A stretch of 64,000 nt of DNA from Patescibacteria group bacterium (GCA_041660305.1 JBAZWO010000001.1:113909-177908); one strand, 5' to 3'; counted from the stretch's first letter, positions 1 to 26,677 are shown. Translations and numbers: made by a program. Notes: generated by a model not told the origin, from the sequence alone.

Positions 1-27
1 TTGGGCGGAATGCCCGTGACATCCTTC

Positions 28-732
28 TTACCGGTTGGTTCCCGGAAAAGAAGGAGTTGTCATCATCGCTGCCTGGCCGCCGGTGTTGACATCGCCACCA
101 TTTGCAGTCACTAATGGCTGCTTCATGTGGGTCAGCCCGTACGTGAGCAAACCTGTCGCGATGACCACCCCGGTCGTGATGATTGCGGGCCGGACCCAGG
201 AGCGGTTCCGGCGTGGGGGCTCGTCGGCGGGCAGATCGGCGCCGAGGTCGGGGACGTCGTCGTTCCGGACGGGGGTCTCGGCGAACGTGAATGCCGGCAT
301 GGAGATACCGGTGGAGGATCCGTCAGCACTATGATTATAGTACTTGAACGTTCCACCACTTGCGTTCCCCGATCCGGCCACATCCGCCGCCCTTTGCGCT
401 GCGAGCAGGCTCGCCGTGGCCTCTAGGCACTTTGCCGAGCTGGTCATACCGAGCCCGACGACCTCACCACCTCTCATCAAGGCGGCTTGGAGTGCCTTGT
501 TGGCCTCTTCCTCACTCCGCAAACAGGCGCCCTGCATCTCGAGTACCGTCAAGTCACCCGAGGGAAGGGCTCGTACCCCGCCCGGCATGCTGTAGCCATA
601 GCCAGTGGGGAGGGTCGGGAGAGGCTGAGCGGCCACCGGAGCAGAATTCTGTGCAAAAACAGAGAACTGAACCGCCATCATGATAACGCCCACGATGGCA
701 CAAGCGACGATCAGACTGATCGACTTTTTCAT
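28..732 (-). CDS. hypothetical secreted/membrane-anchored protein (N-terminal signal peptide, C-terminal TM helix), GC-rich
   Basis: 234-aa ORF. N-terminus MKKSISLIVACAIVGVIMMAVQFSVFAQ is signal-peptide-like. There is a C-terminal hydrophobic helix and an AAGGAG ribosome-binding site upstream of the ATG. Local GC is about 62%, against about 35% for the window bulk. Confidence 0.5.
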   Translation of the reverse strand: MKKSISLIVACAIVGVIMMAVQFSVFAQNSAPVAAQPLPTLPTGYGYSMPGGVRALPSGDLTVLEMQGACLRSEEEANKALQAALMRGGEVVGLGMTSSAKCLEATASLLAAQRAADVAGSGNASGGTFKYYNHSADGSSTGISMPAFTFAETPVRNDDVPDLGADLPADEPPRRNRSWVRPAIITTGVVIATGLLTYGLTHMKQPLVTANGGDVNTGGQAAMMTTPSFPGTNR

Positions 733-881
733 AACTCAATCTCCTTGATTTTCTGAAAGCCAGCGACCTCGATGGTCGTGTGATACTTCAGGATGAATAC
801 CTGAGGCCGCTGGCAGATTTTACCGAGAAAAACTGGAATCGGACTGCCCACTTCTACGGTGTGGGCAAAAACCGTGCGGCC

Positions 882-1466
882 TTAGCGCGCCGCAGGTGTC
901 GTCGCCGGAATGCCCGATGCACAGAAACTGTAGTAACCGTTTTGACCGGCCGCTACAAGTCCTGCTGCGAGCTTCTCACACAGAGTGAGCGGCTTGGCTT
1001 TGACCACCACGTGCTTTTTGGGCGGGCGCTTGGTGGTTTCGGCCGGCTTCTCGACTTCTTCGGGGGCGGGGGTAGGCTTGGAACAGTCTGTACCGCAGTT
1101 GACGTTGACCACGGTTGTCCCGGGCGGTACGATGGTCGTCGTTCCAGTAGGAGTCGCAGTGGTGGTCGGAGCGGGCGGCTGGCTGGAGCTGGCTCCCGTC
1201 GCTTCCGGTGCCGGAGTCTCCTCCGGTCCGTAGAGCTTGAGAGCGCTCTCGGCTTCCTGCTTCCAGGAGCTTGCCTTCGCCTCCGCCGCTTTCTTCTCAG
1301 CCAAACGCTCGCGCGCCTGGGCGAGAGGCCCGGTGGGCTCACCGGTTACCTCGGCCGCCGAGGCTGCGCCGTTCTTGTCGAGCCAGCGCCCGGCGTACTT
1401 ACCAAGATTCAACGCACCAAAAACGATGATGATGATGATGAGAATAGCTGTGATTCCGCGAAACAT
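882..1466 (-). CDS. N-terminally anchored Pro/Thr-rich protein (TonB-like topology: TM, Pro/Thr linker, Cys-containing C-terminal domain)
   Basis: The ORF track opens with a TTG; the first ATG gives MFRGITAILIIIIIVFGALNLG (one TM). A PAPEATGASSSQPPAPTTTATPTGTTT linker and a four-Cys C-terminal domain follow. The opposite-strand ORF 780..1550 is Arg-rich nonsense. GC-rich. Confidence 0.45.
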   Translation of the reverse strand: MFRGITAILIIIIIVFGALNLGKYAGRWLDKNGAASAAEVTGEPTGPLAQARERLAEKKAAEAKASSWKQEAESALKLYGPEETPAPEATGASSSQPPAPTTTATPTGTTTIVPPGTTVVNVNCGTDCSKPTPAPEEVEKPAETTKRPPKKHVVVKAKPLTLCEKLAAGLVAAGQNGYYSFCASGIPATTPAAR

Positions 1467-1491
1467 AGTGAACCTCCAAATCTGAACGGTG

Positions 1492-2319
1492 TTAAGCCAG
1501 GAAATACATACCAATTAAGAACGCCGCGATCCCGGCAAGAATCGCAATGATCGCCCACTGCTCGTTGGTCACCGCATCGATTCCGGTTTTAGCCGGAATG
1601 GCGGGCTGAGCGGGCGGGATCTCGATCTTGACGACCGCGGTTGCTGGCTCGGGATCCGGCTTGGCCTTCTTGGCTTCTTCGAGTTGCTTACGCAACTCTG
1701 CCAACTCGGCCTCACGCCGACTTTCCGTTGCCTTACGCGCGATCTCAGCTTCTGTCGCCTTCCGATCCGCTTCCACCTTCTGGAGCCGCTCACGCAGCTC
1801 CTTGGTTTCAGCTTCGGCTTGCTCGCGCGCCGCTTTTTCCTCGGCCAGCTTGCGCTGTGCCTCGGGTTCGGTCTGAACCGGATGCACGGACTCGCGGTCC
1901 TTGCGGAGAACGGAGAACCGGCCGGCAGAGCGGGGAGTCGACTCCTCAGGGGCAGGGGTGGGCTCGGATTTTCCCATCACGCTCTCCCGCACCTTCTTGG
2001 TATCAACGGTCTTGAACAACTCCTCCAGATGGAGGGCGTCACCGTCAATGACCTTGAAGGAAGCGGGAGGTGCGGTAACGGGCGTTTCCGAAGTGAACGT
2101 TGAAATCATTTCGTCCGCCCTTACCTCGGCCTTGCAGCCATAGCTGGTTCGCTTGTTGGCGTGTTCAACCGACAGTTTGCCTTCATCCGTGAAGATGATA
2201 TGGCTTTCCGTACGGTCTGCGTCCAACAGAACGATCAGCAGCACTGCGAACTCGATGGCCGAAGGGGTGTAACCCTCCGGCAGTGCGCGGACGACTTTTC
2301 CGACTGTCAACGAACTCAT
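1492..2319 (-). CDS. tail-anchored coiled-coil protein with N-terminal globular domain
   Basis: ATG at 2317-2319 with GGAGG seven nucleotides upstream (MSSLTVGKVV...). The middle is a charged coiled coil (EAQRKLAEEKAAREQAEAETKELRERLQKVEADRK...). A C-terminal TM helix WAIIAILAGIAAFLIGMYFLA closes the protein. GC-rich. Confidence 0.5.
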   Translation of the reverse strand: MSSLTVGKVVRALPEGYTPSAIEFAVLLIVLLDADRTESHIIFTDEGKLSVEHANKRTSYGCKAEVRADEMISTFTSETPVTAPPASFKVIDGDALHLEELFKTVDTKKVRESVMGKSEPTPAPEESTPRSAGRFSVLRKDRESVHPVQTEPEAQRKLAEEKAAREQAEAETKELRERLQKVEADRKATEAEIARKATESRREAELAELRKQLEEAKKAKPDPEPATAVVKIEIPPAQPAIPAKTGIDAVTNEQWAIIAILAGIAAFLIGMYFLA

Positions 2320-2551
2320 GATAGACCTCCTTTTACTGTAAGAACCTGCCTCCAATCCGCGGATTTGCGGATGGAGGCTACGTTGATTGAACATGTTGCA
2401 CTAAGCTAGTGATATCCTAGAATCTAAGATACCGTTAGCTTAGTACAGACATGCTCTGTAAAAACTTTTTTCATATATTTGCCTATTGTGTGTTGTCAAA
2501 GTACATCCGCCTACGCCCCTTGCGGGACTTCGGCGAGACGCGTCCGATTAT

Positions 2552-2613
2552 CTCCCTCTTCCTCCTCTCCCCCTTCTCCTAAATTAGGAGAAGGGGGTCG
2601 GGGGGTTGAGGTG
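2552..2613. repeat. GC-rich nested-palindromic intergenic repeat (family A copy)
   Basis: cccccttctcct-aaatt-aggagaaggggg hairpin followed by ggggggttgaggtg. Confidence 0.7.
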
Positions 2614-2760
2614 TTTATATCGAACTGTCAGGGATAGATACAAGCATAAGCCTATATCCATCCATCTGACAGCTCAATACAATCCATCCAGCTGCTTGCC
2701 CGCCGTAGTCCTTCGTAGCTTTTAGCGGAGAAGGACGTAGGGGGGACAGCTCGGTACAAG

Positions 2761-2865
2761 CAACCTACCCTACCTCCCGGCCTCCTCCCCTCTAAAGGGA
2801 GGAGGAGAATTTCTCCCCTCCCTCTTTATAGGAGGGAGGGGCCGGGGGTGGAAGGTAGAATGAAA
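2761..2865. repeat. family A repeat copy (two hairpins)
   Basis: cctcctcccctctaaagggaggagg and cccctccctctttataggagggagggg. Confidence 0.7.
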
Positions 2866-2986
2866 AAGGCGCATTCTCGCGATCTACTAGGACGCAATTC
2901 TGACCACCGTTTACATCTATATATATTGTATATAGCTGGGAGCGGCTGCTAAATTGCTAGATCGTATTGAAAATACGCCTTTTTCA

Positions 2987-3032
2987 CTCTTCTCCCTCCC
3001 TTTGCAGGGGAGGGTTGGGGTGGGGTCTGTAA
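2987..3032. repeat. family A repeat fragment
   Basis: ccctccctttgcaggggaggg hairpin plus a G-run. Confidence 0.55.
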
Positions 3033-3228
3033 TTATCGGGTCCTAGACCGATAAAGTTAATTATTGATTTTAAAGAACTAAACACTATAATACTTTTTTA
3101 TGATTCTGTCAATAGCCTGGGAATGGTGGGCTGTGGATATCACAAAAAATACCTAAAAATAGCAATTTTTGACCAACCTAGAAATTTTTGCTATTATCCT
3201 TTTGTCCAACCACAATTAATTATTAATT

Positions 3229-3684
3229 ATGGTTTTTATGCAAGTACAGCCGGTGAATATTAGCCCAACCAATGCCGATTTAATGTTGGCTATCCAACAA
3301 AATAATCGGAAATTAGATCAGCACATTAAAGAATCCGATACTAATCGTATGGAAATTTTATTGGCAATTAACGGTTTTGCTAATTATATGCAAGATAACA
3401 TGGTTACCAAAGAAGAATTTGGCGTAGTAAAACAAGATGTATCAGTGCTCAAACAAGATGTATCGACATTAAAACAAGATGTTAGTGAATTAAAACAGAA
3501 TGTAGCGGTATTAAATAAAAAAGCTAATGATACCGAAATTATTTTAGATGGCATTGCTACCAATGTTCATACCATTCAAACCGATCATTCTTTTGCCATT
3601 GAATGGCTAAAAAGCCATGATAAAAAATTAGACACGCATGAAGCTGACATTAAAAACTTACAGTTTCAATTAGGTTCGATTTGA
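3229..3684 (+). CDS. coiled-coil protein with tandem heptad repeats (KQDVSxL x4)
   Basis: 151 aa with VKQDVSVLKQDVSTLKQDVSELKQNVAVL. Same architecture as the paralogs at 33027 and 35621. Confidence 0.6.
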   Translation: MVFMQVQPVNISPTNADLMLAIQQNNRKLDQHIKESDTNRMEILLAINGFANYMQDNMVTKEEFGVVKQDVSVLKQDVSTLKQDVSELKQNVAVLNKKANDTEIILDGIATNVHTIQTDHSFAIEWLKSHDKKLDTHEADIKNLQFQLGSI

Positions 3685-3936
3685 AATACAGCTAGAATCA
3701 CAGATGGCGCAGATAAAATGCTGATTGCACAGATAAATTCAATTAATTAATTGTATTATCTGTGCTATCAGAAATTAATATCTGTGTAATCTGTGATTCA
3801 AGCATTTTGACCACATTATTCTATATTTGTCAATATATACGAGTGTTAAGACGTAAAAAAACTCGCTAATCACTGGTATAAAGAATCGGAACATAGTTGG
3901 GATGTAGTTTTTTGAAATTATCAATGAGTTTTATTT

Positions 3937-4266
3937 ATGGCTAAAAAAAGAATACTCCCAAAGGCAATAAGCCCATACGTTACAGCGTATTTAACTGTGT
4001 TAAAGGAACAACGTAAATTACCAATTACGGCCGCTTATGTATTTGGTTCGTGGTCAAAAGGCACACAACACGAAGATAGTGATATTGACATGTGTATAAT
4101 TTCACCAAAATTAACCGGCTGGATGAGAAGAGTAGATAAATTATCACCTGTGCCCTACTCTGATTTATTTATTATCGAACCACATGGTTTCACCCCCAAA
4201 GAATTTGACCCAAAAACAGACCCCTTAGCCTACGAGATTGTGAAGTATGGGATTAGGGTGATTTAG
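3937..4266 (+). CDS. minimal nucleotidyltransferase (MNT antitoxin-type), solo
   Basis: GSWSKGTQHEDSDIDMCIIS matches the GS...DxD polymerase-beta nucleotidyltransferase signature. Paralog of 32275..32601. No HEPN partner is adjacent. Confidence 0.75.
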   Translation: MAKKRILPKAISPYVTAYLTVLKEQRKLPITAAYVFGSWSKGTQHEDSDIDMCIISPKLTGWMRRVDKLSPVPYSDLFIIEPHGFTPKEFDPKTDPLAYEIVKYGIRVI

Positions 4267-4280
4267 AATAATAATTCTCA

Positions 4281-4607
4281 GTGATTCAAACATTCAGTAA
4301 AACATGTTACAATATAAGTATGGATAAAGATATGTTAATAAAAACAGTTGTTCAGCTTATTCAGCATGAGCTACCCAATAATTATCGTGTTATATTGTTC
4401 GGTTCCTGGGCAAAAGGTAATGCCCTGCCTGCCTCCGATATGGATTTCGGCATTATTGGTGAACAAGCCTTGCCTTGGGAAAAATATTTATCAATAAAAA
4501 GACAACTAGATAGCATTCCTACGTTGCGCAGTATCGATTTAGTAGATATGAATAGAGTAGATGAACATTTTAAAAAAAATGCCCTGGCATATGCTCAATA
4601 TTTATAA
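4281..4607 (+). CDS. nucleotidyltransferase (MNT, HI0073-like antitoxin)
   Basis: ILFGSWAKGNALPASDMDFGII nucleotidyltransferase motif, directly upstream of a HEPN gene. Confidence 0.75.
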   Translation: MIQTFSKTCYNISMDKDMLIKTVVQLIQHELPNNYRVILFGSWAKGNALPASDMDFGIIGEQALPWEKYLSIKRQLDSIPTLRSIDLVDMNRVDEHFKKNALAYAQYL

Positions 4608-4615
4608 ATAATATT

Positions 4616-4987
4616 ATGCGAGAAATTATTGAATCTTTCGAACAATCCATTAATCGATTAAAAGAAATTTTGCAAGAACAACCAACGATTGCTAATCGTG
4701 ATTCGGCTATTAAGCGTTTTGAATTAACTTGCGAGTTAGCTTGGAAATCATTACAAAAATATTTACGTGAAGAAAAAATTCTTTGTTATTCACCAAAAGA
4801 TTGTTTAAAACAAGCTTTTAAGCTTAATTTAATTCAAGATGATGAACGTTGGTTAAATATGATTGAAGATAGAAATTTATCCGTTCACGTGTATGATGAG
4901 TCTTTTGCCATAGAACTTTATAAGCGTTTACCAAATTACCTGTCTATATTTGAACAGTTATTAAAAACTTTTAAATCGAAATTGTGA
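4616..4987 (+). CDS. HEPN domain protein (HI0074-like nucleotidyltransferase substrate-binding / HEPN toxin)
   Basis: 123 aa, helical, with an R-x4-H-x-Y motif in DRNLSVHVY. Forms an MNT-HEPN pair with 4281..4607. Confidence 0.7.
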   Translation: MREIIESFEQSINRLKEILQEQPTIANRDSAIKRFELTCELAWKSLQKYLREEKILCYSPKDCLKQAFKLNLIQDDERWLNMIEDRNLSVHVYDESFAIELYKRLPNYLSIFEQLLKTFKSKL

Positions 4988-5005
4988 AGTGCGAGATTAA
5001 AGTGT

Positions 5006-5072
5006 TTCAATTATAAAACCCCACTAGACTGTATAGATGCAACTCTGTGCAATCTAGCCTAGTGGGGGTTTA
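5006..5072. terminator. putative bidirectional intrinsic terminator
   Basis: aaaaCCCCACTAG ... CTAGTGGGGgtttattttttt: a 9-bp stem flanked by an A-run and a T-run, just after the HEPN stop. The loop is long at about 31 nt. Confidence 0.45.
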
Positions 5073-5194
5073 TTTTTTTATTATTCCGCTAACCTCATCT
5101 TAAACTTATTGAAAGATAAAGTTACTGGGATATGGCTCAATTCGTCGTGTACAAGTACAGACAAGGCTGAGCCGGAACCTTAGAAAGGAACAAA

Positions 5195-5215
5195 GAGGAT
5201 TTTTTGGAAAAAAGG
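5195..5215. repeat. left terminal inverted repeat of GC-rich island (GAGGATTTTTTGGAAA)
   Basis: Reverse-complement partner at 9029-9048 (TTTCCAAAAAAAATCCTC). GC content jumps between these two sites. Confidence 0.5.
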
Positions 5216-5222
5216 CCGCCGG

Positions 5223-5966
5223 CTACTGGCTGCGGCGCAGACGGATCTCGATCCGTCGCCGCGCCTGGTCATTCCGCTGTTTGGTAGTCCCGGTCGCGAG
5301 AGAACCATCAGGCATCTGGGTCTGACCGGCCGATAGCGGCAACACCTGCAGTTTGCCACCCGTGATACGAGTGTCATTCAGCAGGAACTTGGCCACCGTC
5401 ACGGCTCGGGACAAACCCAGATCAGCGTTCGACCCTAAGGCCACGATCTCGTTGGCTTGTCCACTCAAGAACAGGAGCAAGTCCCGATCGAGAGTGGACA
5501 TCTTTCCGTACATAACCGTTTCGTCGGTATGTCCGACTACTTCGATTATGTCCGTGCCATAGGTCGCGGCCAACGTCAGAATTTGCGGGACGATCTTATC
5601 CCGCAGCTTTGCCTCGAAAGTGGCATCAACGTCCGCAGATCCGGACGTGAACGACCAACCACCCGCTTCGGACAGCGCGATGATGGGAGGCTGATCGTTC
5701 TTGGCCTCGGCCTGAAGCTTCTTCAACTTCTCGGCGTCCATGCCGAGTTTTTTTAGCTCCTCGGCCATGGCGCACACCTGCGCCTCGAGCTTTTTGTTTC
5801 TCTCGACGACCTCCTGTGAGGTCGTTTTTGCCAGGTTCTCCTGCAGCCGGTTGGCGTTGGCTGCAAGGATCATGTTTCCTATCATGGAAAGTGTTAGCAA
5901 AAGCAGAAGCACTTCCCAGCCCATGAGCGACTGGAGAAGTGCAGTGTTTCGTTGGTGTGCTGCCAT
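5223..5966 (-). CDS. MotB/OmpA-like protein (one N-terminal TM, coiled coil, OmpA-type peptidoglycan-binding C-terminal domain)
   Basis: C-terminal domain shows GHTDETVMYG...NADLGLSRAVTVAKFL...RRIEIRLRR, the OmpA_C signature. TM helix WEVLLLLLTLSMIGNMILAA. Its ATG overlaps the upstream stop (TAATG). Confidence 0.75.
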   Translation of the reverse strand: MAAHQRNTALLQSLMGWEVLLLLLTLSMIGNMILAANANRLQENLAKTTSQEVVERNKKLEAQVCAMAEELKKLGMDAEKLKKLQAEAKNDQPPIIALSEAGGWSFTSGSADVDATFEAKLRDKIVPQILTLAATYGTDIIEVVGHTDETVMYGKMSTLDRDLLLFLSGQANEIVALGSNADLGLSRAVTVAKFLLNDTRITGGKLQVLPLSAGQTQMPDGSLATGTTKQRNDQARRRIEIRLRRSQ

Positions 5967-6616
5967 TAATTTTTCCCCCCAGCATTCTGGTCAGGGAAAA
6001 AATCATTCAGATCCACCAACAACTTTCCAATTCCCGCGACCAGTACCCGGAACGCCTCGAGATCACCATTGAGCGCGTCCGAGTTCAGACGAGCTCGAGA
6101 CAACGACGTCCGCAATGCTTCCACCTCGGCCGTCACCGCTCCGATATTGCCGCTCCCGCCACCAACATTGCCCGTGTTACCACCACCACTTGCCGATCCG
6201 CCTCCGGAAAGCCCATCGATATAGTTTAGGGCCACCATACAGGTGAGCCCTATTGCCACCGACATCAGACCCTCCATCAGTGGAGCAACGATCTGACCGA
6301 CGGGCATGTCGGTCAGAGCTTTTGTTTTTACCCCGTCGAACACGATCCCCAAGGAAACTGCAAGAGCAGCAACCAGAGAGATAATGCCAATGGCTTGAAC
6401 CAAGGTAGCCACGGCGGTCAGTTGGACAGGATATTCCGTAGGGTCGTTTCTCAAAAACCACCTAACAGAAGTCACTGTGATAAAGATCATTCCCCCGAAT
6501 GCGGCTATGGGGAAGAGAACCTTCATCACGTTCAGGCTGCCAGAGAACCAGGACACGAGGAGCGCGAGCACAATCGCCACGAGAACTGGCAGCACTCGCC
6601 GAATGAGAAACTTCAT
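5966..6616 (-). CDS. MotA/TolQ/ExbB-like four-TM membrane protein with Gly-rich cytoplasmic tail
   Basis: 216 aa with four predicted TM helices; the last two are spaced like a MotA/ExbB family channel. AGGAGG ribosome-binding site. Tightly coupled to the OmpA-like gene downstream. Confidence 0.5.
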   Translation of the reverse strand: MKFLIRRVLPVLVAIVLALLVSWFSGSLNVMKVLFPIAAFGGMIFITVTSVRWFLRNDPTEYPVQLTAVATLVQAIGIISLVAALAVSLGIVFDGVKTKALTDMPVGQIVAPLMEGLMSVAIGLTCMVALNYIDGLSGGGSASGGGNTGNVGGGSGNIGAVTAEVEALRTSLSRARLNSDALNGDLEAFRVLVAGIGKLLVDLNDFFPDQNAGGKN

Positions 6617-6624
6617 GTCACCTC

Positions 6625-7680
6625 CTACTTTTTGCCATCCGTGAGCAGCTTATTACCGAAATCTTGCGATCCGGAAGACAACTGCCCAGCGTATTTTGCC
6701 ATGTAGTCCTGTACCACCTTTTTTCCGGCCACACCGCCACCCTTGAGGGCGGCCAGAATGGCCATCACGGCCATGTCCCGAACTGCCTCGGACCCGTCCA
6801 AGATTCCGCACTGCCCACCGCCGGCTTTGGCGATGGCCTTGAAGTTCTCGAGCGCGAGAGGGCTACCCTCTTTGCACTCGGAATCCTCGGGATGCGGAAC
6901 GTGGAACGTGTGGATGATGACCTTGCTGTCGCGAAGAGTCTTGGCGACATCGGTCGCGACCCCGTTTGGAACGGGGTATCCTCGCTTCCGATAGTACACC
7001 AGTTCCTCTGCGCTGTGGGCACGGGCATCACCAATTATCAGCACCATGTCCACCACATCCTGCATCTGCACCACTTCGTTCAACCCGTATTCCAGAGCCT
7101 CGGGGTAAGGATATGGATCCTCTCCCCGCTCTCCACCGCCGGCCGCGTAGATACCGCGCAACCACTGCTTGATCTGGCCGGGGTCGTTTCTGAATCCGGA
7201 ACGCTCGATGATCTTGCTGTCACCATAGTCTCGATATGCGATAACCTCGACCTGAAGACGCTCTCCGGCCTGCTCTCTTGCCCGCATGACAATGTCATCC
7301 ATCTGATTCCGGACGCCATTGATGGTGGGTTGTTGAGAACCTGTGGCATCGATGAGGATCACGACCTTGCCCTCTTTCTGGGCCGAGGTCTGCTCTTCCT
7401 TCGCCTGCTGGCCTGCCTGCCGATACCGAGCCATACGATCTTCCTGAGACTCAGACAGCCGACCGACGGCGGTTGACTGAGGCTGCTGCCTGGCCACACC
7501 AGTTACGGTGCTTCCAGGCAGAGCCTTGGGCCCGCTGCCACTGCTGGAGCTCTGCTGGGCACTTCCCGGAGGAAGCGCGCGCTGAGGCTGCTGCTGGCCG
7601 CTGCTGCTTGCTGCTTGCTGCTCGGGGTTCTTTTTTTCTACGTCCTTGTCTCCACCACGAAGCTTGCTAAAAAGTCCCAT
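6625..7680 (-). CDS. von Willebrand factor A (vWA) domain protein with Gln/Ser-rich N-terminal region
   Basis: VVILIDATGSQQ is a MIDAS-like D-x-T-x-S, followed by VEVIAYRDYGDS and MVLIIGDARAH beta-strand motifs typical of the vWA fold. AAGGAG ribosome-binding site. Confidence 0.6.
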   Translation of the reverse strand: MGLFSKLRGGDKDVEKKNPEQQAASSSGQQQPQRALPPGSAQQSSSSGSGPKALPGSTVTGVARQQPQSTAVGRLSESQEDRMARYRQAGQQAKEEQTSAQKEGKVVILIDATGSQQPTINGVRNQMDDIVMRAREQAGERLQVEVIAYRDYGDSKIIERSGFRNDPGQIKQWLRGIYAAGGGERGEDPYPYPEALEYGLNEVVQMQDVVDMVLIIGDARAHSAEELVYYRKRGYPVPNGVATDVAKTLRDSKVIIHTFHVPHPEDSECKEGSPLALENFKAIAKAGGGQCGILDGSEAVRDMAVMAILAALKGGGVAGKKVVQDYMAKYAGQLSSGSQDFGNKLLTDGKK

Positions 7681-7691
7681 CGTTCATCTCC

Positions 7692-8972
7692 TTATTTCTT
7701 CGGTTTTCCCTTATCAAGGGTCGCTCTATGCTTAGCAGCGTCCTTGAACAAACGTTCATGCTCTTCGCGCTCCTTGGGAGGAGCGGAGGTATGTCTGTCC
7801 GGATGGTGCTTGAGAGCCATCTTGCGATACGCCTTTTTGATTGTCTCAGCGCTATGCTCGGTGTCCCGAGCATAGCCGAAGAAATCGCAAGCGTCGCACC
7901 AGGCTTGCCAGTCCTTGTCGAACGTGGAAGCCTGTTTCGGATCTTGCCACTTGCCGCCACCATACTGCGCCTGGATCTGCTTGATAAAGGCGTCAATGTC
8001 GCCCCGTACTTGAGCGAGTGACTCGAGCAGTTCAATTACCTCGTCTAGCGACGAGGCATCGTGCACTGCTTTTTCGAGCCGCTCTTTCTCAACAACGAGA
8101 CCGTCCATCAACGCTTCGTTGGCCTTAACCCAGTCCAAAACCTTCTGCTTGCGCATCAGGTCCGGATTCTGAGCCGGCCAATACTGCAGCATCCAGGCGA
8201 TCTGGCCGCCCAGAACGGAGATGAGAAACTGAAAGTTACCCCATTCCTTCTGGAAATCGACCAGTAGAGACCGTGCTTCATTGGCTTCCTCAAGAGAAAG
8301 CCCTGTGGGGTTCGAACTGAACGGCTTGAGCATCTTGAGAAACTGCTCGAAAGCCGCCAGCTGAATTTTTCCACGGAGCCCCTCCGCCTCGGGCACCACC
8401 GCTAACATGATTCTGGCGGTGTCGAGGAGTGTTTCAGCCTGCTGGTGATTAGCCATGTGCATAGCTGAAATAATTTGGTCACGCGAACCGTCCGACAGCC
8501 TACCCCGAAACTCACCGAGCTCGAGGAGGATGCCGATAACCTGGTTGAGACGTACAAACTCCGCCGGGGACTTGGCGCGTATACGATCCACGTTGATCCC
8601 GTAAGCGGAGCAGAACTCCCGGAATGCCTGAACCGGCCCCGGGTGAGTCGCTAAAAGCTGAAAGTACTCACCCGGTATCCACTCCAGCCCCAGCCGCGCG
8701 AACAGAGCATTTGCAGCTCGTTTTTGCAACCGAGGCAGAGCGGGGTGTGCCGTAGGATCAAAACGAGCGAGTCGCGACCGTTTGGGAACCCCGCCGATGC
8801 CGGATCCCGAAACGCGCTGCACCCGCTGCTTGGCCTGCGGCCCGACAGACTGTGGGGTTGAAGGGTCAGGGACCCCCAACCGCCGTCGAAGCCCAATAGG
8901 CAGACGGTGGCCGAGGGCGAGAAGCACACTCAAGAACCTCTTGAGTAGCTCCTCTAGGGCGGACTTAATCAT
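7692..8972 (-). CDS. large helical protein with C-terminal DnaJ J-domain (HPD motif)
   Basis: C-terminus SAETIKKAYRKMALKHHPDRH is a canonical J-domain. Start chosen at MIKSALEEL, with GGGAGG four nucleotides upstream. The ORF track extends to 9050. Confidence 0.8.
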   Translation of the reverse strand: MIKSALEELLKRFLSVLLALGHRLPIGLRRRLGVPDPSTPQSVGPQAKQRVQRVSGSGIGGVPKRSRLARFDPTAHPALPRLQKRAANALFARLGLEWIPGEYFQLLATHPGPVQAFREFCSAYGINVDRIRAKSPAEFVRLNQVIGILLELGEFRGRLSDGSRDQIISAMHMANHQQAETLLDTARIMLAVVPEAEGLRGKIQLAAFEQFLKMLKPFSSNPTGLSLEEANEARSLLVDFQKEWGNFQFLISVLGGQIAWMLQYWPAQNPDLMRKQKVLDWVKANEALMDGLVVEKERLEKAVHDASSLDEVIELLESLAQVRGDIDAFIKQIQAQYGGGKWQDPKQASTFDKDWQAWCDACDFFGYARDTEHSAETIKKAYRKMALKHHPDRHTSAPPKEREEHERLFKDAAKHRATLDKGKPKK

Positions 8973-9028
8973 CGAACCTCCCTTGTGGCCATTCGTTAGC
9001 CACGTTTTTCGTTTTCTAAAATCAAAAA

Positions 9029-9048
9029 AATTTCCAAAAAAAATCCTC
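9029..9048. repeat. right terminal inverted repeat of GC-rich island
   Basis: TTTCCAAAAAAAATCCTC is the reverse complement of the left repeat at 5195-5212, allowing for T-run length. Confidence 0.5.
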
Positions 9049-9103
9049 AATTTTCAACGATCAAGCCTGTAACAAAGATATTATCCTTGCCAGGCTAATT
9101 TAA

Positions 9104-9204
9104 GCGGAGGATATCTCTTCACCCTAACCCCTGGGTTCCCGCCTGCCTCCTTAGACGGAGTACGGCGGGCAGGTACCCCAGTGGGTTAGAAGAGAGCTCT
9201 GCTT
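9104..9204. repeat. GC-rich nested palindromic repeat (family A variant)
   Basis: ctaacccctgg ... ccagtgggttag outer arms and a cccgcctgcc ... ggcgggcagg inner arm. Confidence 0.55.
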
Positions 9205-9405
9205 AAATCAACCGAGCAAAAAGCACAATACCACCTTATTTTAGGTTATTTATTATAATTTTTGGTAGGTAATGTGGTTCATATAAGAACGAGCCAGAAT
9301 ATCACTTTTTTTTGATTTTGTCAATACCAAATCTGTTTAGCACCATATTATTGTATATTTGTCAATATATACGTGTGTTAGTTAGCTTGTTATAATAACA
9401 ATATT

Positions 9406-9717
9406 ATGAGTACAAAACAGCTGAATGATATTGTAAAAACCATTACTAAAGAAATACAGCCAGAACAAGTGGTGTTGTTTGGTTCACAAGTATGGGGTAC
9501 TCCTCACATAGGTAGCGATATTGATTTATTAGTAGTAGCCAATACTACTGGTAAAATGGAGTATTTACGTAAAATACGCCAAGTTTTATTTGGCCACAAC
9601 TTTCCGCCGATAGATTTAATCACCTATTCAGCCTCGGAAATTAAGCAGCGTATTACTCAAGGCGATAGTTTTTTGGCAGAAATTATGAACAGAGGCAAAA
9701 TAGTTTATGAACGCTAA
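9406..9717 (+). CDS. nucleotidyltransferase (MNT antitoxin)
   Basis: VVLFGSQVWGTPHIGSDIDLLVV. Overlaps the downstream HEPN gene by 11 nt. Confidence 0.75.
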   Translation: MSTKQLNDIVKTITKEIQPEQVVLFGSQVWGTPHIGSDIDLLVVANTTGKMEYLRKIRQVLFGHNFPPIDLITYSASEIKQRITQGDSFLAEIMNRGKIVYER

Positions 9718-10123
9718 TATTTTGCCGATCATTGTTCAAGAATGGCTAGACAAAGCTAATAATGATGAATTAAACGCTCAATCAATTTTAAAACATAAAG
9801 ACGGCACACCAAGTGGTGTTTGTTTTTTGTCGCAACAAATGGCTGAAAAATATTTGAAAGCTTTTTTAATGTTTCATAAAAAACCATTACAAAAAATCCA
9901 TGCGTTAGATCGGTTATTAGAATCTTGCATTGAAATAAATAATGATTTAAGCACACTGAAAGATGATGTAATTTTTTTAACAGATTTCTATATTTCCACA
10001 CGTTACCCAGCTGATATACCGGATTCATCCTGGAATGACGCTGAACATGCTCTAACGGCCGCTAAGCATGTAAAAGATGTAATAATAAAAACATTAGCAT
10101 TATCAGCGTCATCAGAAATTTAA
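9707..10123 (+). CDS. HEPN domain protein (PF05168-like)
   Basis: QQMAEKYLKAFL and a C-terminal ISTRYPAD motif typical of HEPN. Paired with the MNT gene upstream. Confidence 0.7.
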   Translation: MNANILPIIVQEWLDKANNDELNAQSILKHKDGTPSGVCFLSQQMAEKYLKAFLMFHKKPLQKIHALDRLLESCIEINNDLSTLKDDVIFLTDFYISTRYPADIPDSSWNDAEHALTAAKHVKDVIIKTLALSASSEI

Positions 10124-10140
10124 TCTGCGTAATCTGTGAT

Positions 10141-10950
10141 TCAGCGTTTCAAATGATCCTGCATGCTCACTGGCTCATCTGGTTTGCCGTCTACCGCGTT
10201 AAAACGATCTAACACTTTATATTGTGGGGGTTCCACTGGTTCCACGATGGTAGAGACGCCCCGGCGGGGCGTCTCTACCTTGTTGGGCAACGTCTCTACC
10301 TTAGGTGTTTCTACAGGGGATTCCTGTGGGAACGCGATATATCGCGTTCTCTTCGCCTCAAATTTTAACAAATAATACGTATAAGACGCTAACAAGCCTA
10401 GCGCGCCAGCGGCTGCTCCATTGAGTGGTATATTTGGTTTTACTGGTCTATTACTAGTAACCGGCCCTTCAATTTGTTTTATGTATACGCTATCTCCCCC
10501 ACCATAATAATCAGAGGAGTTAGTAGTTAACACCTGCGCAACACCGGTAGCAATGCCTTCCGCGTTAGCAGGATTAGTGCCATAACCAAATATTTTAATA
10601 ATACCGGTTTCTGGCACTACTTCGGCGCTTACCAGTTTTTCCCAAGCACTTTTTTTATCATTCGAATCGATACTAAACTGCTCTGGTTTTACCTGGCCAG
10701 TTTCTAATACTCGATTCAAAAAATCTAGTGAAGTAATTACGTTTACCAAGCTGTTTCCCAAGCTAGCGGCCGCCCGTTGCGCTGTGTAGGAATCTACCGT
10801 AGCGCTTTGCTTTTGCACAATTAGTAAATCTACTTCCGATTTATATAATTGATCGGGAATAAACGATAAACCAACGGCAATAGCCGCGCATACTAACGTG
10901 CTGCATGTTATTACTAGCCAGTGTTCTTTAATCAGAAGTAAATAACGCAT
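10141..10950 (-). CDS. Wzz-like polysaccharide chain-length determinant protein (TM-periplasmic-TM)
   Basis: N-terminal TM plus a C-terminal TM (GAAAGALGLLASYTYYLLK). The C-terminal region carries an in-frame copy of the palindrome GTAGAGACGC...GCGTCTCTAC. Confidence 0.55.
   Translation of the reverse strand: MRYLLLIKEHWLVITCSTLVCAAIAVGLSFIPDQLYKSEVDLLIVQKQSATVDSYTAQRAAASLGNSLVNVITSLDFLNRVLETGQVKPEQFSIDSNDKKSAWEKLVSAEVVPETGIIKIFGYGTNPANAEGIATGVAQVLTTNSSDYYGGGDSVYIKQIEGPVTSNRPVKPNIPLNGAAAGALGLLASYTYYLLKFEAKRTRYIAFPQESPVETPKVETLPNKVETPRRGVSTIVEPVEPPQYKVLDRFNAVDGKPDEPVSMQDHLKR
10250..10323. repeat. family B perfect palindrome (GTAGAGACGC-ccccggcgggg-GCGTCTCTAC) plus two degenerate half-copies, inside CDS
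   Basis: 29-bp perfect palindrome at 10250-10278. Other copies are at 16646-16673 and 29766-29793. Confidence 0.8.
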
Positions 10951-10958
10951 AAATTTAT

Positions 10959-13900
10959 TTAGCCTTGCAATGTAGCATTTAAAATGTCTTTACCATCGAA
11001 TTCAACTTTATGTGGCAACAAACCTCGTTCTAAGGCGTGTTGAATAACACTAAGGGCTTCTTTAGCAGCCGGATCACCAGCCGAAGCATGCTTAGAAATA
11101 TCTTGAGCTACATCTACCCAACGCTGCGCTTGAGCGAGCAAACCTGAATTGCGTTCAAAGCCAAGTGAAAAATGTAAAAGAGGTTCACCATGATGCCCAG
11201 CTATTTCAGCAACCGGATAATGTGGCTTTAACACTCCGGATATTTTATCCATGGCTCTATGCATGCCTTCTGCTACTGCTTCCTTAATCTGGCCAACACT
11301 ATTGGAAGCACTCACATGAATAGGTTCCACCCCAGCTACTTTGGTAGATATATCAATCTGCGCCATTTTTCCTATTACTTCCTCTTTAAAATAAACACCA
11401 TGTTCATAACGTCCTTTACACGTAGAAAAACTATCTTCGACTTGTTTTAATAATTGTTTAGCCTGCCAGATAGTTTCAGCTGGTGCCCGCTGCGCTTTAT
11501 AATCAGCCAACATATCCTGCATTTGTTTTACTTGTTGTTCTTGAGCAATAATATCTTTAATCGCTCCTACTCTCATTTCTGGCGGAACAAACTTGCCTGA
11601 GAGCGGTTCTCCATAATGGCTTAAATCAACATCATTATATTTTAATCCATTATTATATGGCGCAACAATTTTATCCCAATCTGCCGTGCCTGGTTTTACG
11701 GAAATTACTTCTGCTACACCATCATTATTATGCACGTAAAAATATTCTGGCTGGTGGGTAATTGGATTCGTTACTTGGCGTAACGGTTCATCAAATGGTT
11801 CATAATCGGAAGAAACATATAAATCTGTTTCTAAACCTTCCATGCTTGTACCAGGATTAGTACCTACCGCCGGAAAATGATAATCTACACCATGAAAACG
11901 TTCTGGGTGTTGCAACATATCAGTTTGGGTATGTGCCCACTGTTGCTCAGAAGTTAAAGCCTGCTCAATGCCGTGCGGATTCAGATCAGCACGTGCCCCA
12001 GCTGGTTCTACAGAATTACCAGCCCCATGCCCAACCCCGTGTCCGTGCGGCAAATCCACCGCTGGTGCCTGGTCACCGGCCTCAAACGAATAATGCGCCT
12101 GGCCGTCACTGCCTACATTAGCCACCACTTTATCACCTTCATGCGTTAAATTATACCACTGTCCTTTACTTTTTAATTCCTGCATTGCGTTAGCAAATTC
12201 TTTCTTCACCCAAGCCGATTCGCTTATATCGGAACTTTTATCATAACCTAATTCTTTCGCGTTTTGCCGGATTAAATGCAATAATGATCTTGACTCAAAA
12301 TCCTTACCACTTGTGCCGGTAATTTCATCTTCAATTTTTACCATTGGCGCAGTATGATCTGGAGTCAACGTACCAGCTTCTTGCGCTCGAGATAAATCTT
12401 CCCGAACAGCGGCTGCTGCTCGCTGAATTTGCTCGTTAGTAAATGGCCGATCAATAATTTCCTGACGATCCTTAGCCCATTGTTTTTGAAAATTGGATTC
12501 TGTCTGAGCAGTGGCTCGTTGTGCTAACCATTCATTGAGTTCGTGCATGCCAATGGCACCCAAAGCCGCTCCGGCTACACCGCCAGCTACTTTATAGCCT
12601 AATTTAACATGATCAAATTGTTTTTGTTTTTCATAATGCTCTACAATATGATCATTCTGCTGGGTGGCTAACCCTAAGCTCATTCTAGCATCGTTAACTA
12701 ATAATTCTTCTAACCGTTGCGCTTCAGTTTGTAAACGAACATATTCTATTGAACGCTGGCCTTGTTCATTGGTTTGGGCTTTAACATATTTTGGATTATT
12801 TAATTGTTCACGCACTTGCGCTAATTTTAAGCTTAACTCTTTCGGTGAAGTTACCTTATCAATATCATGTAATTCCTTAGCGGTAATAGCGCTGGCATAC
12901 TCTGCGCCCATAACTGCACTAGCCCGTTTTGTACCAACTTTTTCACCTAACATCATGCCCAGCTTACCACCAGCTAGTGCTCCAGTATATACACGTAATC
13001 CAGGTACATAGCGAGTGGCTATACCAACGCCAGCAAATAAAAATGCTTGGATAGATTTTTCTGTAGTTGTATTTTTTCCAACCCCTAACGTAAGTACATT
13101 AGCTACTCGTTTTACCCAGCTATTATCCAGAGCCTTAGCCATTTTACCTGGCTGATTATGTTGCATATCTGCCTCAAATAAATCGTTACCAGCTTCTACT
13201 AAATATAGTTTTTTTACTGCTTCCGCCATTTGTTCAATAGGCTTAATCATTTTTTCCCAGGCATCTTTCTTGTTTTTATCTGTCGGATTGGCATCGTAAT
13301 CATCTCGAATAGCTTCATAATTAGCTATGCCATAACGCTTGGCTAATTGATCCAATGAGCCACGTTCAATTTGGTTGGCTCGTTGTGATATTAAATGATC
13401 TAAACCAGTTTTAAAAGCACCTTTATCTTTATCCTTCGCTGCAACGTATTGTTTAGTAGTATTTTCTATTGAAACTTCTAATGGCACGGTACCGTCACGT
13501 TTGGTTTTAACTTTTTGTTCCACCGCCACGGCAATTCTGGCTAACACATCGTTAACACATTGTTTATATTTATCGCTATCTGTTTTTTCTAATTCAGAAC
13601 GAATACCTTTTTCTTGTTTTACCGCGCCTTTTTTATCACGAAAATGTTCGTGCAAATTAAATACCATTCTGGCAGCCAACGCACCAGCCGCTCCAACTGC
13701 AAACGCTGGCATAGCTACAGCTAAGGTAGTAGCTGCCAAACCAGCCCCAATACCAACACCGGCTATGGTGCCAATTTTTCCGGCCGTCCGCCAAAAGCTT
13801 TTAGGTACCGCTGTCTGCTGATCGGCTCTAGCCTGTTCATACACCTGCTGATCCTGCATTAAAAACATCAGCTGCGCATCTGTTTCTGCCAAGCCAATAT

Positions 13901-15836
13901 GATCGGCTAAATTTTTTAGTTCAGCCGCATCTAATTTTAATACTGTACCTGCTTTACCAGCATCTTTATTAGCTAAAGCACTAATTAATTTTTCTATGTA
14001 TTTTTTTAAATCTCCGCCTTTAGCCAATTCCGCTTCCAAATTTTTCATTACAGCATACTTGTCCTTAGCTTCGTCACGTTTCGCTGTTTCCATGCGCACT
14101 GTATTTAATAATTCTTTAGTATTCGGTTGATCAGTAAATTTTTTGGCGGCACAGCTAGTTTCAATAGCCGCAATAAACCCATCATGAGCCTTTTTAATGT
14201 CGGCCGGATCTTTCACGTCCACTGTAATTTCCGCACCACCTTCCTCTAATTGATAAGTTACTACCGTTTTATCTTTATCAACATGCAATTTAAATACCGC
14301 TGGTTTATCAGCGTATTTTGCTTTCGTAGTTGGATTTACTGTATAATCACGCGTGAGTGTGTAATTTATTTCCGTATCTTTTTTATCTTCTTTTGCTTTA
14401 CCAAGTGCTAAATATTCTGGTATTTCTTTACCAATTACGCCAACGCCTGGCAAATTCCATTCATCAGCAGCTACTGGACTATCTACTAATTTTTTAGCTT
14501 CGGCTTCTAATGCTGCTTTAGCTGCGGCAGTTTCTAATTTGGCTTTTTTTTCAGTACAGAATTTTTCGGTTTCTTTAACAAATTTATCATTAAATATACT
14601 TTGTAATACACCAGCATCATTGGCTTTTAATTTTTGCGCTTTAGCACTATCCGCTACTTTATATTCCACAGCCGCCGGCTTATTTGGTTCAATCACTATT
14701 TTAAAATAAGCGCCCGTAGAACTATAGGCCCTATCTTTGTATGGTTTAGTTAATGTAATGGTTCTAGATTTTCCTGCACTAACACTTTCAGAAATACTAC
14801 CACTATCCAAATAGTCATCTAATGATAACTTTAAACTTTCATTATTAGCTAAATCGATTTGTTCATCATGAGCGTCGGTTAAATATTTTTCTATGGTACT
14901 AGTTAAATCTGCTTCATCTTTTTCTTGTTTAACTTTTTTATCGGCTTCCGTTTTAATAAAGTTAGTTACTTCACTTTGAAAATTTCTATATTCACGTACC
15001 GCGGCTGCTGGATTAGGTGCTGGTTTAGGACCAACGGTTCTGCCACCATATGCTGTATACTCAATAGTTACTCCATGGTCTGTTACTAACATAGTAAATT
15101 CAGCTGGCACAGCACTTAGTGCTGGCGTTCCTTCGTATGGCTGTATATAATTATAAGCTATGCTATCGCCTATAGAAGCCGCTCCACTAAAATCAGAGCG
15201 TGTTAATTCAGCATGACCTAATTCTGGCAAATCCAACGCCGCAAAAGCTTTCCCACCAATTTCCCAATTTACATCTCCGTCTTTAAAATTGGTAACGTAT
15301 CGCTTATCAAGATCTTTTATCTGTTCTGCCGGTATTCCTTTGCGAGCTACTTCTTGAGCATTAACTACACCAACCATTTTAGCTTGATAAATCCGTTCAG
15401 TTTCCTTAGCTAAATCATCCAGCTGTTTTATTAATTGTTCATTATCAATTGTAAAACCTGTTATTAAAGTCATATCAAGAATATCTCTTAAATCAGATTT
15501 GAAACGTTGTTCGGCTCGTTCAATAACCTTTTGTAATTCTACCAAAGCTGCTTTAGCTGTGTCTTTAGCTAATTCTACATTTTCTTTAGCAGTAATTATT
15601 TTGTCTTCCGTGTCAGCGTCTTTCAATTCTTTACTAGCAGCTTTAAATGCATCACGAGCAGCATTTACATCTTTAACCGCTTGTTCCGCGCGCCCAACAA
15701 AACGTTGCCGTTGTTCGGCTGGATTAATAGCATCACCTGCACTCACTGGAGCACTACCAGCAGCTGAATCTGGTTTTGCTTTTTTCTTTTTCTCGTCTTT
15801 TTTATCTTTTTTTAGATCTTTATCGTGTTTGCCCAT
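10959..15836 (-). CDS. giant protein (1625 aa) with internal glycine-zipper TM segments
   Basis: Single uninterrupted ORF. Lys-rich N-terminus and no signal peptide. Three Gly/Ala-rich hydrophobic segments (GTIAGVGIGAGLAATTLAVAMPAFAVGAAGALAA, AFLFAGVGIATRY, VAGGVAGAALGAIGM). A His/Gly-rich region occurs near residue 1190. Confidence 0.6.
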   Translation of the reverse strand: MGKHDKDLKKDKKDEKKKKAKPDSAAGSAPVSAGDAINPAEQRQRFVGRAEQAVKDVNAARDAFKAASKELKDADTEDKIITAKENVELAKDTAKAALVELQKVIERAEQRFKSDLRDILDMTLITGFTIDNEQLIKQLDDLAKETERIYQAKMVGVVNAQEVARKGIPAEQIKDLDKRYVTNFKDGDVNWEIGGKAFAALDLPELGHAELTRSDFSGAASIGDSIAYNYIQPYEGTPALSAVPAEFTMLVTDHGVTIEYTAYGGRTVGPKPAPNPAAAVREYRNFQSEVTNFIKTEADKKVKQEKDEADLTSTIEKYLTDAHDEQIDLANNESLKLSLDDYLDSGSISESVSAGKSRTITLTKPYKDRAYSSTGAYFKIVIEPNKPAAVEYKVADSAKAQKLKANDAGVLQSIFNDKFVKETEKFCTEKKAKLETAAAKAALEAEAKKLVDSPVAADEWNLPGVGVIGKEIPEYLALGKAKEDKKDTEINYTLTRDYTVNPTTKAKYADKPAVFKLHVDKDKTVVTYQLEEGGAEITVDVKDPADIKKAHDGFIAAIETSCAAKKFTDQPNTKELLNTVRMETAKRDEAKDKYAVMKNLEAELAKGGDLKKYIEKLISALANKDAGKAGTVLKLDAAELKNLADHIGLAETDAQLMFLMQDQQVYEQARADQQTAVPKSFWRTAGKIGTIAGVGIGAGLAATTLAVAMPAFAVGAAGALAARMVFNLHEHFRDKKGAVKQEKGIRSELEKTDSDKYKQCVNDVLARIAVAVEQKVKTKRDGTVPLEVSIENTTKQYVAAKDKDKGAFKTGLDHLISQRANQIERGSLDQLAKRYGIANYEAIRDDYDANPTDKNKKDAWEKMIKPIEQMAEAVKKLYLVEAGNDLFEADMQHNQPGKMAKALDNSWVKRVANVLTLGVGKNTTTEKSIQAFLFAGVGIATRYVPGLRVYTGALAGGKLGMMLGEKVGTKRASAVMGAEYASAITAKELHDIDKVTSPKELSLKLAQVREQLNNPKYVKAQTNEQGQRSIEYVRLQTEAQRLEELLVNDARMSLGLATQQNDHIVEHYEKQKQFDHVKLGYKVAGGVAGAALGAIGMHELNEWLAQRATAQTESNFQKQWAKDRQEIIDRPFTNEQIQRAAAAVREDLSRAQEAGTLTPDHTAPMVKIEDEITGTSGKDFESRSLLHLIRQNAKELGYDKSSDISESAWVKKEFANAMQELKSKGQWYNLTHEGDKVVANVGSDGQAHYSFEAGDQAPAVDLPHGHGVGHGAGNSVEPAGARADLNPHGIEQALTSEQQWAHTQTDMLQHPERFHGVDYHFPAVGTNPGTSMEGLETDLYVSSDYEPFDEPLRQVTNPITHQPEYFYVHNNDGVAEVISVKPGTADWDKIVAPYNNGLKYNDVDLSHYGEPLSGKFVPPEMRVGAIKDIIAQEQQVKQMQDMLADYKAQRAPAETIWQAKQLLKQVEDSFSTCKGRYEHGVYFKEEVIGKMAQIDISTKVAGVEPIHVSASNSVGQIKEAVAEGMHRAMDKISGVLKPHYPVAEIAGHHGEPLLHFSLGFERNSGLLAQAQRWVDVAQDISKHASAGDPAAKEALSVIQHALERGLLPHKVEFDGKDILNATLQG

Positions 15837-17250: not shown

Positions 17251-17350
17251 CCCCCTAACCCCCTTCTCCTGCAGGAGAAGGGGGAAAAATTAATTTAACC
17301 TCCCCCTCTTCCCTTTACAGGGGAAGAGGGGGCCGGGGGGTGATGAGGTC
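17244..17350. repeat. family A MITE-like element with terminal inverted repeats GACCTCATC/GATGAGGTC
   Basis: gacctcatcc...cccccttctcctgcaggagaaggggg...cccctcttccctttacaggggaagaggggg...gatgaggtc. Fills the lgt to dsbA-like intergenic gap exactly. Confidence 0.8.
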
Positions 17351-18124: not shown

Positions 18125-18165
18125 TAAGTTAATATATATGAAATTACGTAATAATTCAAATTCCT

Positions 18166-23977: not shown

Positions 23978-24000
23978 TGCAATATATATTAATGTTTAAG

Positions 24001-26103: not shown

Positions 26104-26142
26104 AGTTAAATTATTATAGCACGTTTTAAAGCATGAGCAATA

Positions 26143-26674: not shown

Positions 26675-26677
26675 CTA

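Follow-up and report, generated by a model that had tools for sequence, protein, structure and literature searches.

We describe a four-gene operon that occupies approximately positions 5214-9005 of a 64,000-nucleotide stretch of DNA (hereafter the window) from a Patescibacteria group bacterium (GCA_041660305.1, JBAZWO010000001.1:113909-177908), and that is set apart from the surrounding sequence by a clear discontinuity in composition, codons, oligonucleotides and translation signals. The explanation we favor, with a probability of roughly three in four, is that this self-contained operon was acquired horizontally by a Candidate Phyla Radiation (CPR) bacterium from a higher-GC lineage that uses Shine-Dalgarno (SD) sites, that its integration was unmarked, and that it constitutes an accessory module. 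The host is a patescibacterial (CPR) metagenome-assembled genome (MAG), the NCBI annotation of the island's own vWA protein reading 'Patescibacteria group bacterium', and the remaining genes of the window encode common bacterial functions (Lgt, a DsbA-like protein, transketolase, ribulose-phosphate epimerase, Mur ligases and glycosyltransferases).

The GC-rich core (5214-9005) has a GC content of 0.569, against 0.386 for the host genes between 10141 and 53000 and 0.35-0.45 for most of the window. The adjoining spacers stand at 0.372 (5074-5194) and 0.263 (5195-5213) on the left, and at 0.209 (9006-9048) and 0.278 (9049-9084) on the right. A preliminary description of this DNA, made from the sequence alone, had reported a rise from 35% to 62% exactly between the two arms of an inverted repeat; the sharp step stands, whereas the figure of 62% was somewhat high and only the left boundary fits exactly, since the GC-rich DNA stops 25 nt short of the right arm. 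GC content at third codon positions (GC3) is 0.60-0.70 in the four island genes and approximately 0.17-0.46 in host genes. The composition-normalised tetranucleotide correlation between island and host is r = 0.08, compared with 0.67-0.92 for host chunks of the same size, while the correlation with unrelated high-GC proteobacterial loci reaches 0.5-0.74. GC content, codon usage and tetranucleotide frequencies all set the island apart from its host.

Translation signals provide a further line of evidence. All four island genes carry an SD site 5-12 nt upstream of the ATG (GGGAGG, AAGGAG and AGGAGG for genes 1-3, and a G-rich site of the GGGGGG type for gene 4), as compared with an SD-like motif in just 2 of 45 host genes, one of these lying within a GC-rich repeat. 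The contrast is significant for this island alone (Fisher p = 0.002) and more so when the three GC-rich segments of the window are pooled (7/8 foreign genes against 2/45 host genes; Fisher p = 1.8e-6), and it bears out the earlier statement that strong ribosome-binding sites are found inside the island and are mostly missing outside it. One might suppose instead that this is an ancient native operon, its genes intact and its own signals kept, whose GC content and SD sites have been maintained by selection, for example for special expression, with no transfer involved; that a donor copy was not found would agree with this. However, GC3, which is largely neutral, is shifted as much as GC1, the tetranucleotides resemble generic high-GC proteobacterial DNA, relatives of the operon occur in Alphaproteobacteria, and the window contains two more segments that are GC-rich, bear SD sites and carry unrelated genes, which makes a native origin very hard to credit. 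Horizontal acquisition from a higher-GC donor using SD sites is strongly supported because composition, SD usage and the high-GC homologous modules described below agree. The preliminary description had already proposed a high-GC donor, and composition, GC3, tetranucleotides, SD usage and alphaproteobacterial relatives all speak for it.

Chimeras can arise in metagenome assemblies, and GC steps this sharp could reflect a misassembly or binning error that attached high-GC DNA from another organism to a CPR contig, as the preliminary description had cautioned. The segment is nevertheless internal to a contig of 491,640 bp, and its junction sequences are unique and non-repeat. A MEGAHIT contig (ERZ27249449) spans both junctions, covering window positions 1339-14987 and reaching lgt and the dsbA-like gene in the other direction; a Logan contig of SRR18595301 covers 2780-9165, both junctions included, and one of SRR6484324 covers 1339-8880 with the left junction. 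None of the three differs from the window (100% identity). Because assemblies of different runs (ENA, Logan) give identical junctions, a chimera is ruled out, and an artefactual origin of any kind is scarcely credible.

The inverted repeat, which was the headline of the preliminary description, contributes little to this picture. It had been given as approximately 17 bp long with arms that are reverse complements of one another. A repeat is present, at slightly different coordinates (Table 1), but complementarity is inexact: the arms are of low complexity and differ by a 2-nt indel in the homopolymer (T6 vs T8). The right arm is located 59 nt ahead of the first start codon, with 25 nt of AT-rich sequence between it and the GC-rich core. 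The alignment score of 25 was reached by 17 of 4971 random pairs of AT-rich 81-nt windows and by 1 of 5000 shuffles, by 2 of 500 shuffles with flanks of approximately 120 nt, and by 7 of 300 when the complete intergenic flanks formed the search space. Since the rate of chance matches depends in this way on the search space, rising to 7/300, statistical support for the repeat is marginal (p ~0.003-0.02). Extension of the repeat past the core, outward or inward, was considered and rejected, no similarity being found in either direction.

These arms would acquire a clear meaning if the island were a non-autonomous transposable cassette, with the arms as terminal inverted repeats and the transposase encoded elsewhere. 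They are inverted, they lie at both compositional boundaries and nowhere else in the window, and their score is reached by just 0.3-0.4% of random boundary-sized comparisons. In addition, another contig (L007) contains the exact 13-mer GAGGATTTTTTGG once (4916-4928, minus strand, within the region 4908-4935), where the composition changes at one edge of its homologous module, and the bases next to it resemble the right arm of the window (CCAAAAAATCCTCCAATTTT vs CCAAAAAAAATCCTCAATTTT). Against this, target-site duplication was not found next to the arms, the outside flanks ending in GGAACAAA on the left and beginning with AATTTTCA on the right being mismatched, and the best direct repeat in the flanks of the island is at chance level. 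The element is single, with no other copy of the repeat in the 64-kb window or in 5.6 kb beyond its left end (L008), approximately 70 kb in total, and p is only ~0.02 when whole spacers are searched. The homopolymer indel and the AT-rich gap before the right arm are likewise unfavorable to true termini. Terminal repeats were found neither on the other two GC-rich, SD-bearing segments of the window (A and C, below) nor on the homologous modules of other genomes, 0 of 6 of which have flanking inverted or direct repeats above chance. We therefore rejected the idea that the repeat is a terminus conserved across the module family: it is missing in all six of these modules (L012-L017), and the match in L007 (p ~0.02 per locus under a Markov null) is found at 1 of 7 loci and in the orientation opposite to that of the window. 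A transposable cassette is consequently improbable, and the earlier proposal of a repeat-bounded cassette mobilised in trans is not supported, although not strictly refuted, by a repeat that has no target-site duplication, no further copy and no counterpart on the sister segments or the six homologous modules.

The same arms could alternatively be the two halves of an AT-rich palindrome or hairpin of the host, into which the operon was inserted. They are host-like in composition (0.21-0.26 GC), the host spacers are rich in hairpins, including one of 141 nt that lies 37 nt from the right arm and another at 5013-5073, and a missing target-site duplication would be compatible with such an event. 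On the other hand, no intact copy of the palindrome was found elsewhere in the window, the similarity does not continue into the outer flanks, and no mechanism or enzyme was identified, so that we consider a split palindrome quite improbable too.

Returning to horizontal acquisition by unmarked integration, it is most likely that the repeat is a coincidence, or else belongs to the insertion site or to regulatory DNA, and that it is no transposon terminus. Within this explanation, coincidence takes about half of the weight, a local site or regulatory feature most of the remainder, and a true mobility end a small part. On the operon strand, the left arm follows the terminator-like hairpin at the 3' end of the operon and overlaps its U-tract, and therefore the arm may partly be terminator sequence.

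Four open reading frames (ORFs), all on the minus strand, fill the island (Table 1). The J domain of gene 1 exceeds its Pfam cut-off (DnaJ, 32 bits against 27.8) and is further supported by matches to the J domains of DnaJ structures in the PDB and by partial matches to the NCBIfam DnaJ/DjlA families, while the N-terminal region of the protein is without a known domain. Its HPD motif is kept in six of seven J-domain proteins, namely the window copy and five of the six orthologues. The vWA domain of gene 2 scores 26.5 bits against VWA_4, slightly under the cut-off of 27, and the residues D111, T113 and S115 of its metal-ion-dependent adhesion site (MIDAS) are invariant in 40 family members. For gene 3, no family was found in Pfam, PDB or NCBIfam; an alignment of orthologues shows an invariant E-G-L in the last transmembrane (TM) helix and a longer cytoplasmic coiled-coil tail that is shortened in the window copy. 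Some of these orthologues match ZorA weakly in PADLOC (best 9.6e-4), alongside other coiled-coil matches, and none of the six matches Pfam MotA_ExbB. An AlphaFold2 single-sequence model of gene 3 was too poor to use (mean confidence score, pLDDT, 52.7).

Gene 4 encodes an OmpA/MotB-like protein. Its N-terminal TM helix contains a conserved glutamate (MGWE here, MGQE in orthologues), and its OmpA-like domain carries conserved GHTD and RRRIEIRLRR motifs. It matches Pfam OmpA (1.6e-4), an NCBIfam MotB family (2.2e-8) and PADLOC ZorB (1e-3 to 4e-3, the window copy at 0.004), the latter match being seen in three of the six orthologues, and all of these scores fall under curated cut-offs. The 'stator-like' label originally attached to the operon is accordingly appropriate for the B-type subunit (gene 4) and is not borne out for the A-type subunit (gene 3). 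No transposase was found in the four ORFs with Pfam, PADLOC or NCBIfam, in agreement with what had been said of the island before. The vWA and J-domain proteins have no match in PADLOC, and we found no description of a J-domain, vWA and MotAB-like module in the literature.

Comparison with other genomes defined the operon as a rare, conserved four-gene set that is discrete and often compositionally atypical in distant bacteria. A word-indexed search of 5.8 billion proteins returned one real relative of the vWA protein (P0002, 32% identity), and an HMMER scan of 1.84 billion representatives delineated a small vWA family of 53 cluster representatives at E<=1e-10, 260-330 aa in length and 31-39% identical. 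The contig that encodes P0002 (L007) has all four genes, adjoining a type I restriction subunit. Six further loci (L012-L017) were located in species-representative genomes with a profile of the closer vWA subfamily, a procedure that biases the taxonomic picture toward Alphaproteobacteria; all are MAGs of Alphaproteobacteria or 'Proteobacteria' with 0.61-0.66 GC, including Rhodospirillales, Pseudolabrys and Caulobacterales. In these six, the order is vWA, TM/coiled-coil and OmpA-like genes followed by a convergent J-domain gene. The window copy is a variant: it begins with the J-domain gene, which points in the same direction as the other three. In L007, L013, L015 and L017, the GC content of the module lies 4-11 points under that of its flanks, and the module thus looks horizontally acquired there too. 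The module in L016 has a DUF2357/PD-(D/E)XK protein and an AAA ATPase as neighbors.

Two observations on related loci are recorded separately. A viral contig (L020, IMGVR_UViG_2713896721_000001, 6232-8669) encodes a vWA homologue with 46% identity to the subfamily query. Its immediate neighbor is a phage integrase, located where a predicted prophage with a gpA-type terminase ends, and the contig stops inside the module. The other edge of the module in L007 (9215-9300) carries a stretch similar to the 3' half of a tRNA (GGTTCGAGTCC); neither ARAGORN nor Rfam called it.

Taken as a functional unit, the four products allow a model to be proposed. Together, the TM-anchored MotB/OmpA-like protein and its 4-TM, coiled-coil partner would build a membrane complex anchored in the envelope, and this complex may signal to the cytoplasmic vWA/MIDAS protein and the J-domain protein, the latter plausibly recruiting Hsp70. 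An envelope-anchored complex coupled to a vWA protein and to Hsp70 recruitment is the most economical reading of the gene content. In this model, the operon would be a mobile accessory module of the defence-island type, defence being suggested by genomic context, which would have settled in the variable spacer between two nucleotidyltransferase/HEPN toxin-antitoxin loci through illegitimate or otherwise unmarked recombination and not by a dedicated transposase. A bolder proposal sees in the cargo a conflict or defence system of the cell envelope that has not been described before and that moved across phyla into the CPR host. Its anchor and 4-TM partner would sense a signal or supply energy at the membrane and act through the vWA/MIDAS protein and the J-domain protein, the latter recruiting the Hsp70 of the host. 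The GAGGA-Tn-GGAAA arms, with one further occurrence beside the module of L007, could in addition be a recombination or regulatory site travelling with such cassettes. We put this proposal forward tentatively, as rather unlikely in its complete form.

Several observations weigh against acquisition of a mobile accessory module. No integrase, tRNA or transposase was found near the island, and a near-identical donor copy was not found among the 5.8 billion proteins searched, in which the J-domain protein has no word-level homologue at all. Even the best relatives of the vWA protein are just 38-39% identical, and this protein has no match in 72,556 plasmids or 50,697 phage records. PADLOC places the four proteins in no known system, with only weak ZorA/ZorB-like matches, and a defence-type context is seen in only four of nine loci, the rest having housekeeping neighbors. 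Finally, in comparisons limited to the immediate boundaries, the inverted repeat exceeds a typical chance match, and it may for this reason have a hidden role.

Table 1. Features of the island and of its immediate surroundings (window coordinates).
Feature	Position	Strand	Basis or remark
Two minimal nucleotidyltransferase genes and a nucleotidyltransferase substrate-binding (HEPN-like) gene, left neighbors	3937..4987	+	Toxin-antitoxin locus of host composition
Hairpin after the left toxin-antitoxin locus	5013-5073		
Left arm of inverted repeat, GAGGATTTTTTGGAAA (GAGGA-T6-GGAAA), 16 nt	5195..5210	+	AT-rich DNA, 3 nt outside the GC-rich core
Foreign GC-rich core: a single operon of four genes that carries SD sites, a 5' leader and a terminator-like hairpin of its own	5214..9005	-	GC, GC3, tetranucleotides, SD
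Terminator-like hairpin (GCCGC...GCGGC) at operon 3' end	5215..5236	-	Fold; spans the stop codon, then U6 (5208-5213)
Gene 4, 247 aa: TM helix, coiled-coil linker, OmpA/MotB-like peptidoglycan-binding domain	5223..5966	-	Pfam OmpA 1.6e-4
Gene 3, 216 aa: four predicted TM helices, Gly-rich linker, short C-terminal helical tail	5966..6616	-	SD AGGAGG
Gene 2, 351 aa: Q/S-rich N-terminus, then vWA with DxTGS MIDAS	6625..7680	-	SD AAGGAG; Pfam VWA_4 5.6e-6
Gene 1, 426 aa: C-terminal J domain with HPD	7692..8972	-	SD GGGAGG; Pfam DnaJ 1.3e-7
Right arm of inverted repeat, GAGGATTTTTTTTGGAAA (GAGGA-T8-GGAAA; plus strand TTTCCAAAAAAAATCCTC), 18 nt	9031..9048	-	
Nearest predicted sigma-70-like promoter into the operon, TTGACA-17-TATTCT	9296..9324	-	10/12; host-type DNA, within a 21-nt motif
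Nucleotidyltransferase/HEPN toxin-antitoxin pair, right neighbors	9406..10123	+	Host composition

Evidence for the terminator is weak because a consensus terminator scan did not detect the hairpin. No promoter-like site was found between the right arm and the first gene, and the nearest predicted promoter lies in host-type DNA. The 21-nt motif that contains this promoter, TTTTTTTGATTTTGTCAATAC, is present in three copies (86-100% identical, at 3095-3115, 9307-9327 and 58179-58199), each lying to the right of a different GC-rich segment at a distance of 65-260 nt and including TTGACA on its reverse strand. It may provide host promoters for captured genes, or mark a favored insertion context.

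Both neighbors of the island are toxin-antitoxin loci, and the spacer between two such loci is typically a neighborhood of variable type. A 39-nt repeat with 92% identical copies (3810-3848 and 9342-9380) lies upstream of both loci and is probably a promoter or operator common to them. The near-perfect 141-nt hairpin beyond the right arm (9085-9225) has a GC content of 0.55 and predicted energies of -66 and -73.5 kcal/mol on the two strands (z ~ -6.5); it is unique, with no second copy found in the window and no match found in Rfam. No mobility domain was found in the island or its neighbors from 3229 to 10950, no Rfam family in or around the island, no tRNA in the window, and no tRNA or tmRNA integration site in the window or L007. 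A search for an empty insertion site in a close relative of the host found nothing: a neighboring 1625-aa host protein has no relatives among the 5.8 billion proteins, a neighboring Wzz-like protein has none in the JGI metagenomes, and a 25-mer of the host flank was not found in the latter.

The two other GC-rich segments of the window are separate from the four-gene island. Segment A comprises window positions 1-2400 and 1.47 kb beyond the left end (L008 1-2700), approximately 3.9 kb at ~0.57-0.60 GC, with four minus-strand genes that all have strong SD sites and whose predicted products are secreted or membrane proteins of low complexity, including a MopE-like, copper-binding one. Contigs of three different samples begin or end at ~1231-1339, inside its low-complexity gene 882-1466, which suggests strain variation or a repeat there; one Logan contig (L009) runs across this region. 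Segment C (56880-58030, 0.52 GC) contains a single 304-aa gene (57048-57962, minus strand, SD TAGGAGAAG) for which no Pfam or NCBIfam family was found. An upstream region common to the island and segment C, suggested by likeness in a MAFFT alignment, was rejected because a local alignment scored no better than chance (59 of 500 shuffles). Likewise, we found no evidence for one donor of all three segments, since their mutual correlations (0.55-0.65) are no higher than those with unrelated high-GC loci (0.5-0.74).

Other features of the window are noted for completeness. GC-rich polypurine/polypyrimidine hairpin repeats (e.g. CCCCCTCTCTCCTCAGAGGAGAGAGGGGG) fill many intergenic host spacers, with copies at 18146-18301, 19576-19731, 21072-21227 and 23998-24153 and shorter ones at 2550-3030, 17240-17350, 26140-26680, 38390-38490 and 60997-61055, and this family explains the raised GC at 2400-3030. 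An anomaly in the opposite direction is the AT-rich stretch at 53700-55100 (0.20-0.31 GC), with a 372-aa ORF on the minus strand (53724-54842) that has no Pfam family. Finally, a segment of approximately 0.5 kb is present in two copies that are 78-90% identical (33002-33458 and 35596-36115) and include the starts of the ORFs 33027-33440 and 35621-36097.

An island as such is not new in kind, because horizontally acquired genomic islands have been described before in Patescibacteria (Gios et al. 2025, mSystems, PMC12455944). The significance of the present example lies rather in its SD sites, which the foreign genes have kept and which are missing from 43 of 45 host genes, making them a clean marker of foreign DNA in such genomes. 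This raises the question of whether SD-led genes can be expressed by a translation system that is SD-independent. If the defence interpretation were true, a module would have crossed phyla into a CPR host whose own genes lack SD sites, and its translation there would be in question. A rare, conserved cargo that behaves like a mobile cassette of the defence type and is not represented in PADLOC is in any case a candidate for experimental work.

Among known systems, the ion-driven membrane motors of the MotAB, ExbBD and TolQR type, whose peptidoglycan-binding partners include MotB, Pal and the OmpA C-terminal domain, share with the island the arrangement of gene 4, in which an N-terminal TM helix with a conserved acidic residue is followed by a linker and an OmpA-like domain, and an adjoining polytopic membrane protein with an invariant glutamate in a TM helix. 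The island differs in that this similarity falls under every curated cut-off and in that its A-like protein has no detectable homology to MotA/ExbB. Miniature inverted-repeat transposable element (MITE)-like elements and mobile insertion cassettes are defined by multiple copies and by termini in common with an autonomous insertion sequence (IS). The island recalls these elements in having a short inverted repeat at either end and no transposase inside, but it has no target-site duplication, is a single copy and has unequal arms, and no autonomous IS with the same termini was found in the 64-kb window and 5.6 kb of L008.

The island also resembles defence islands and self-contained defence cassettes such as Zorya. 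Like these, the island is a compact operon that has no mobility genes, is patchily distributed across phyla, is of atypical composition in several hosts, and adjoins restriction, toxin-antitoxin or prophage integrase genes. Zorya itself (ZorAB plus effectors) offers a parallel in the combination of a MotB/ZorB-like anchor with a 4-TM coiled-coil protein, some orthologues of which match ZorA weakly. By contrast, the island has no ZorC, D, E, F or G, its partners being vWA/MIDAS and J-domain proteins instead, and its A-like subunit fails Pfam MotA_ExbB in all six orthologues. The genomic islands of Patescibacteria (PMC12455944) are comparable as discrete blocks of atypical composition in streamlined CPR genomes. 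The island described here departs from them in its undescribed four-gene cargo, with no integrase, tRNA or prophage alongside, and in a contrast with the host that reaches as far as the SD sites, in a genome that is almost without them.

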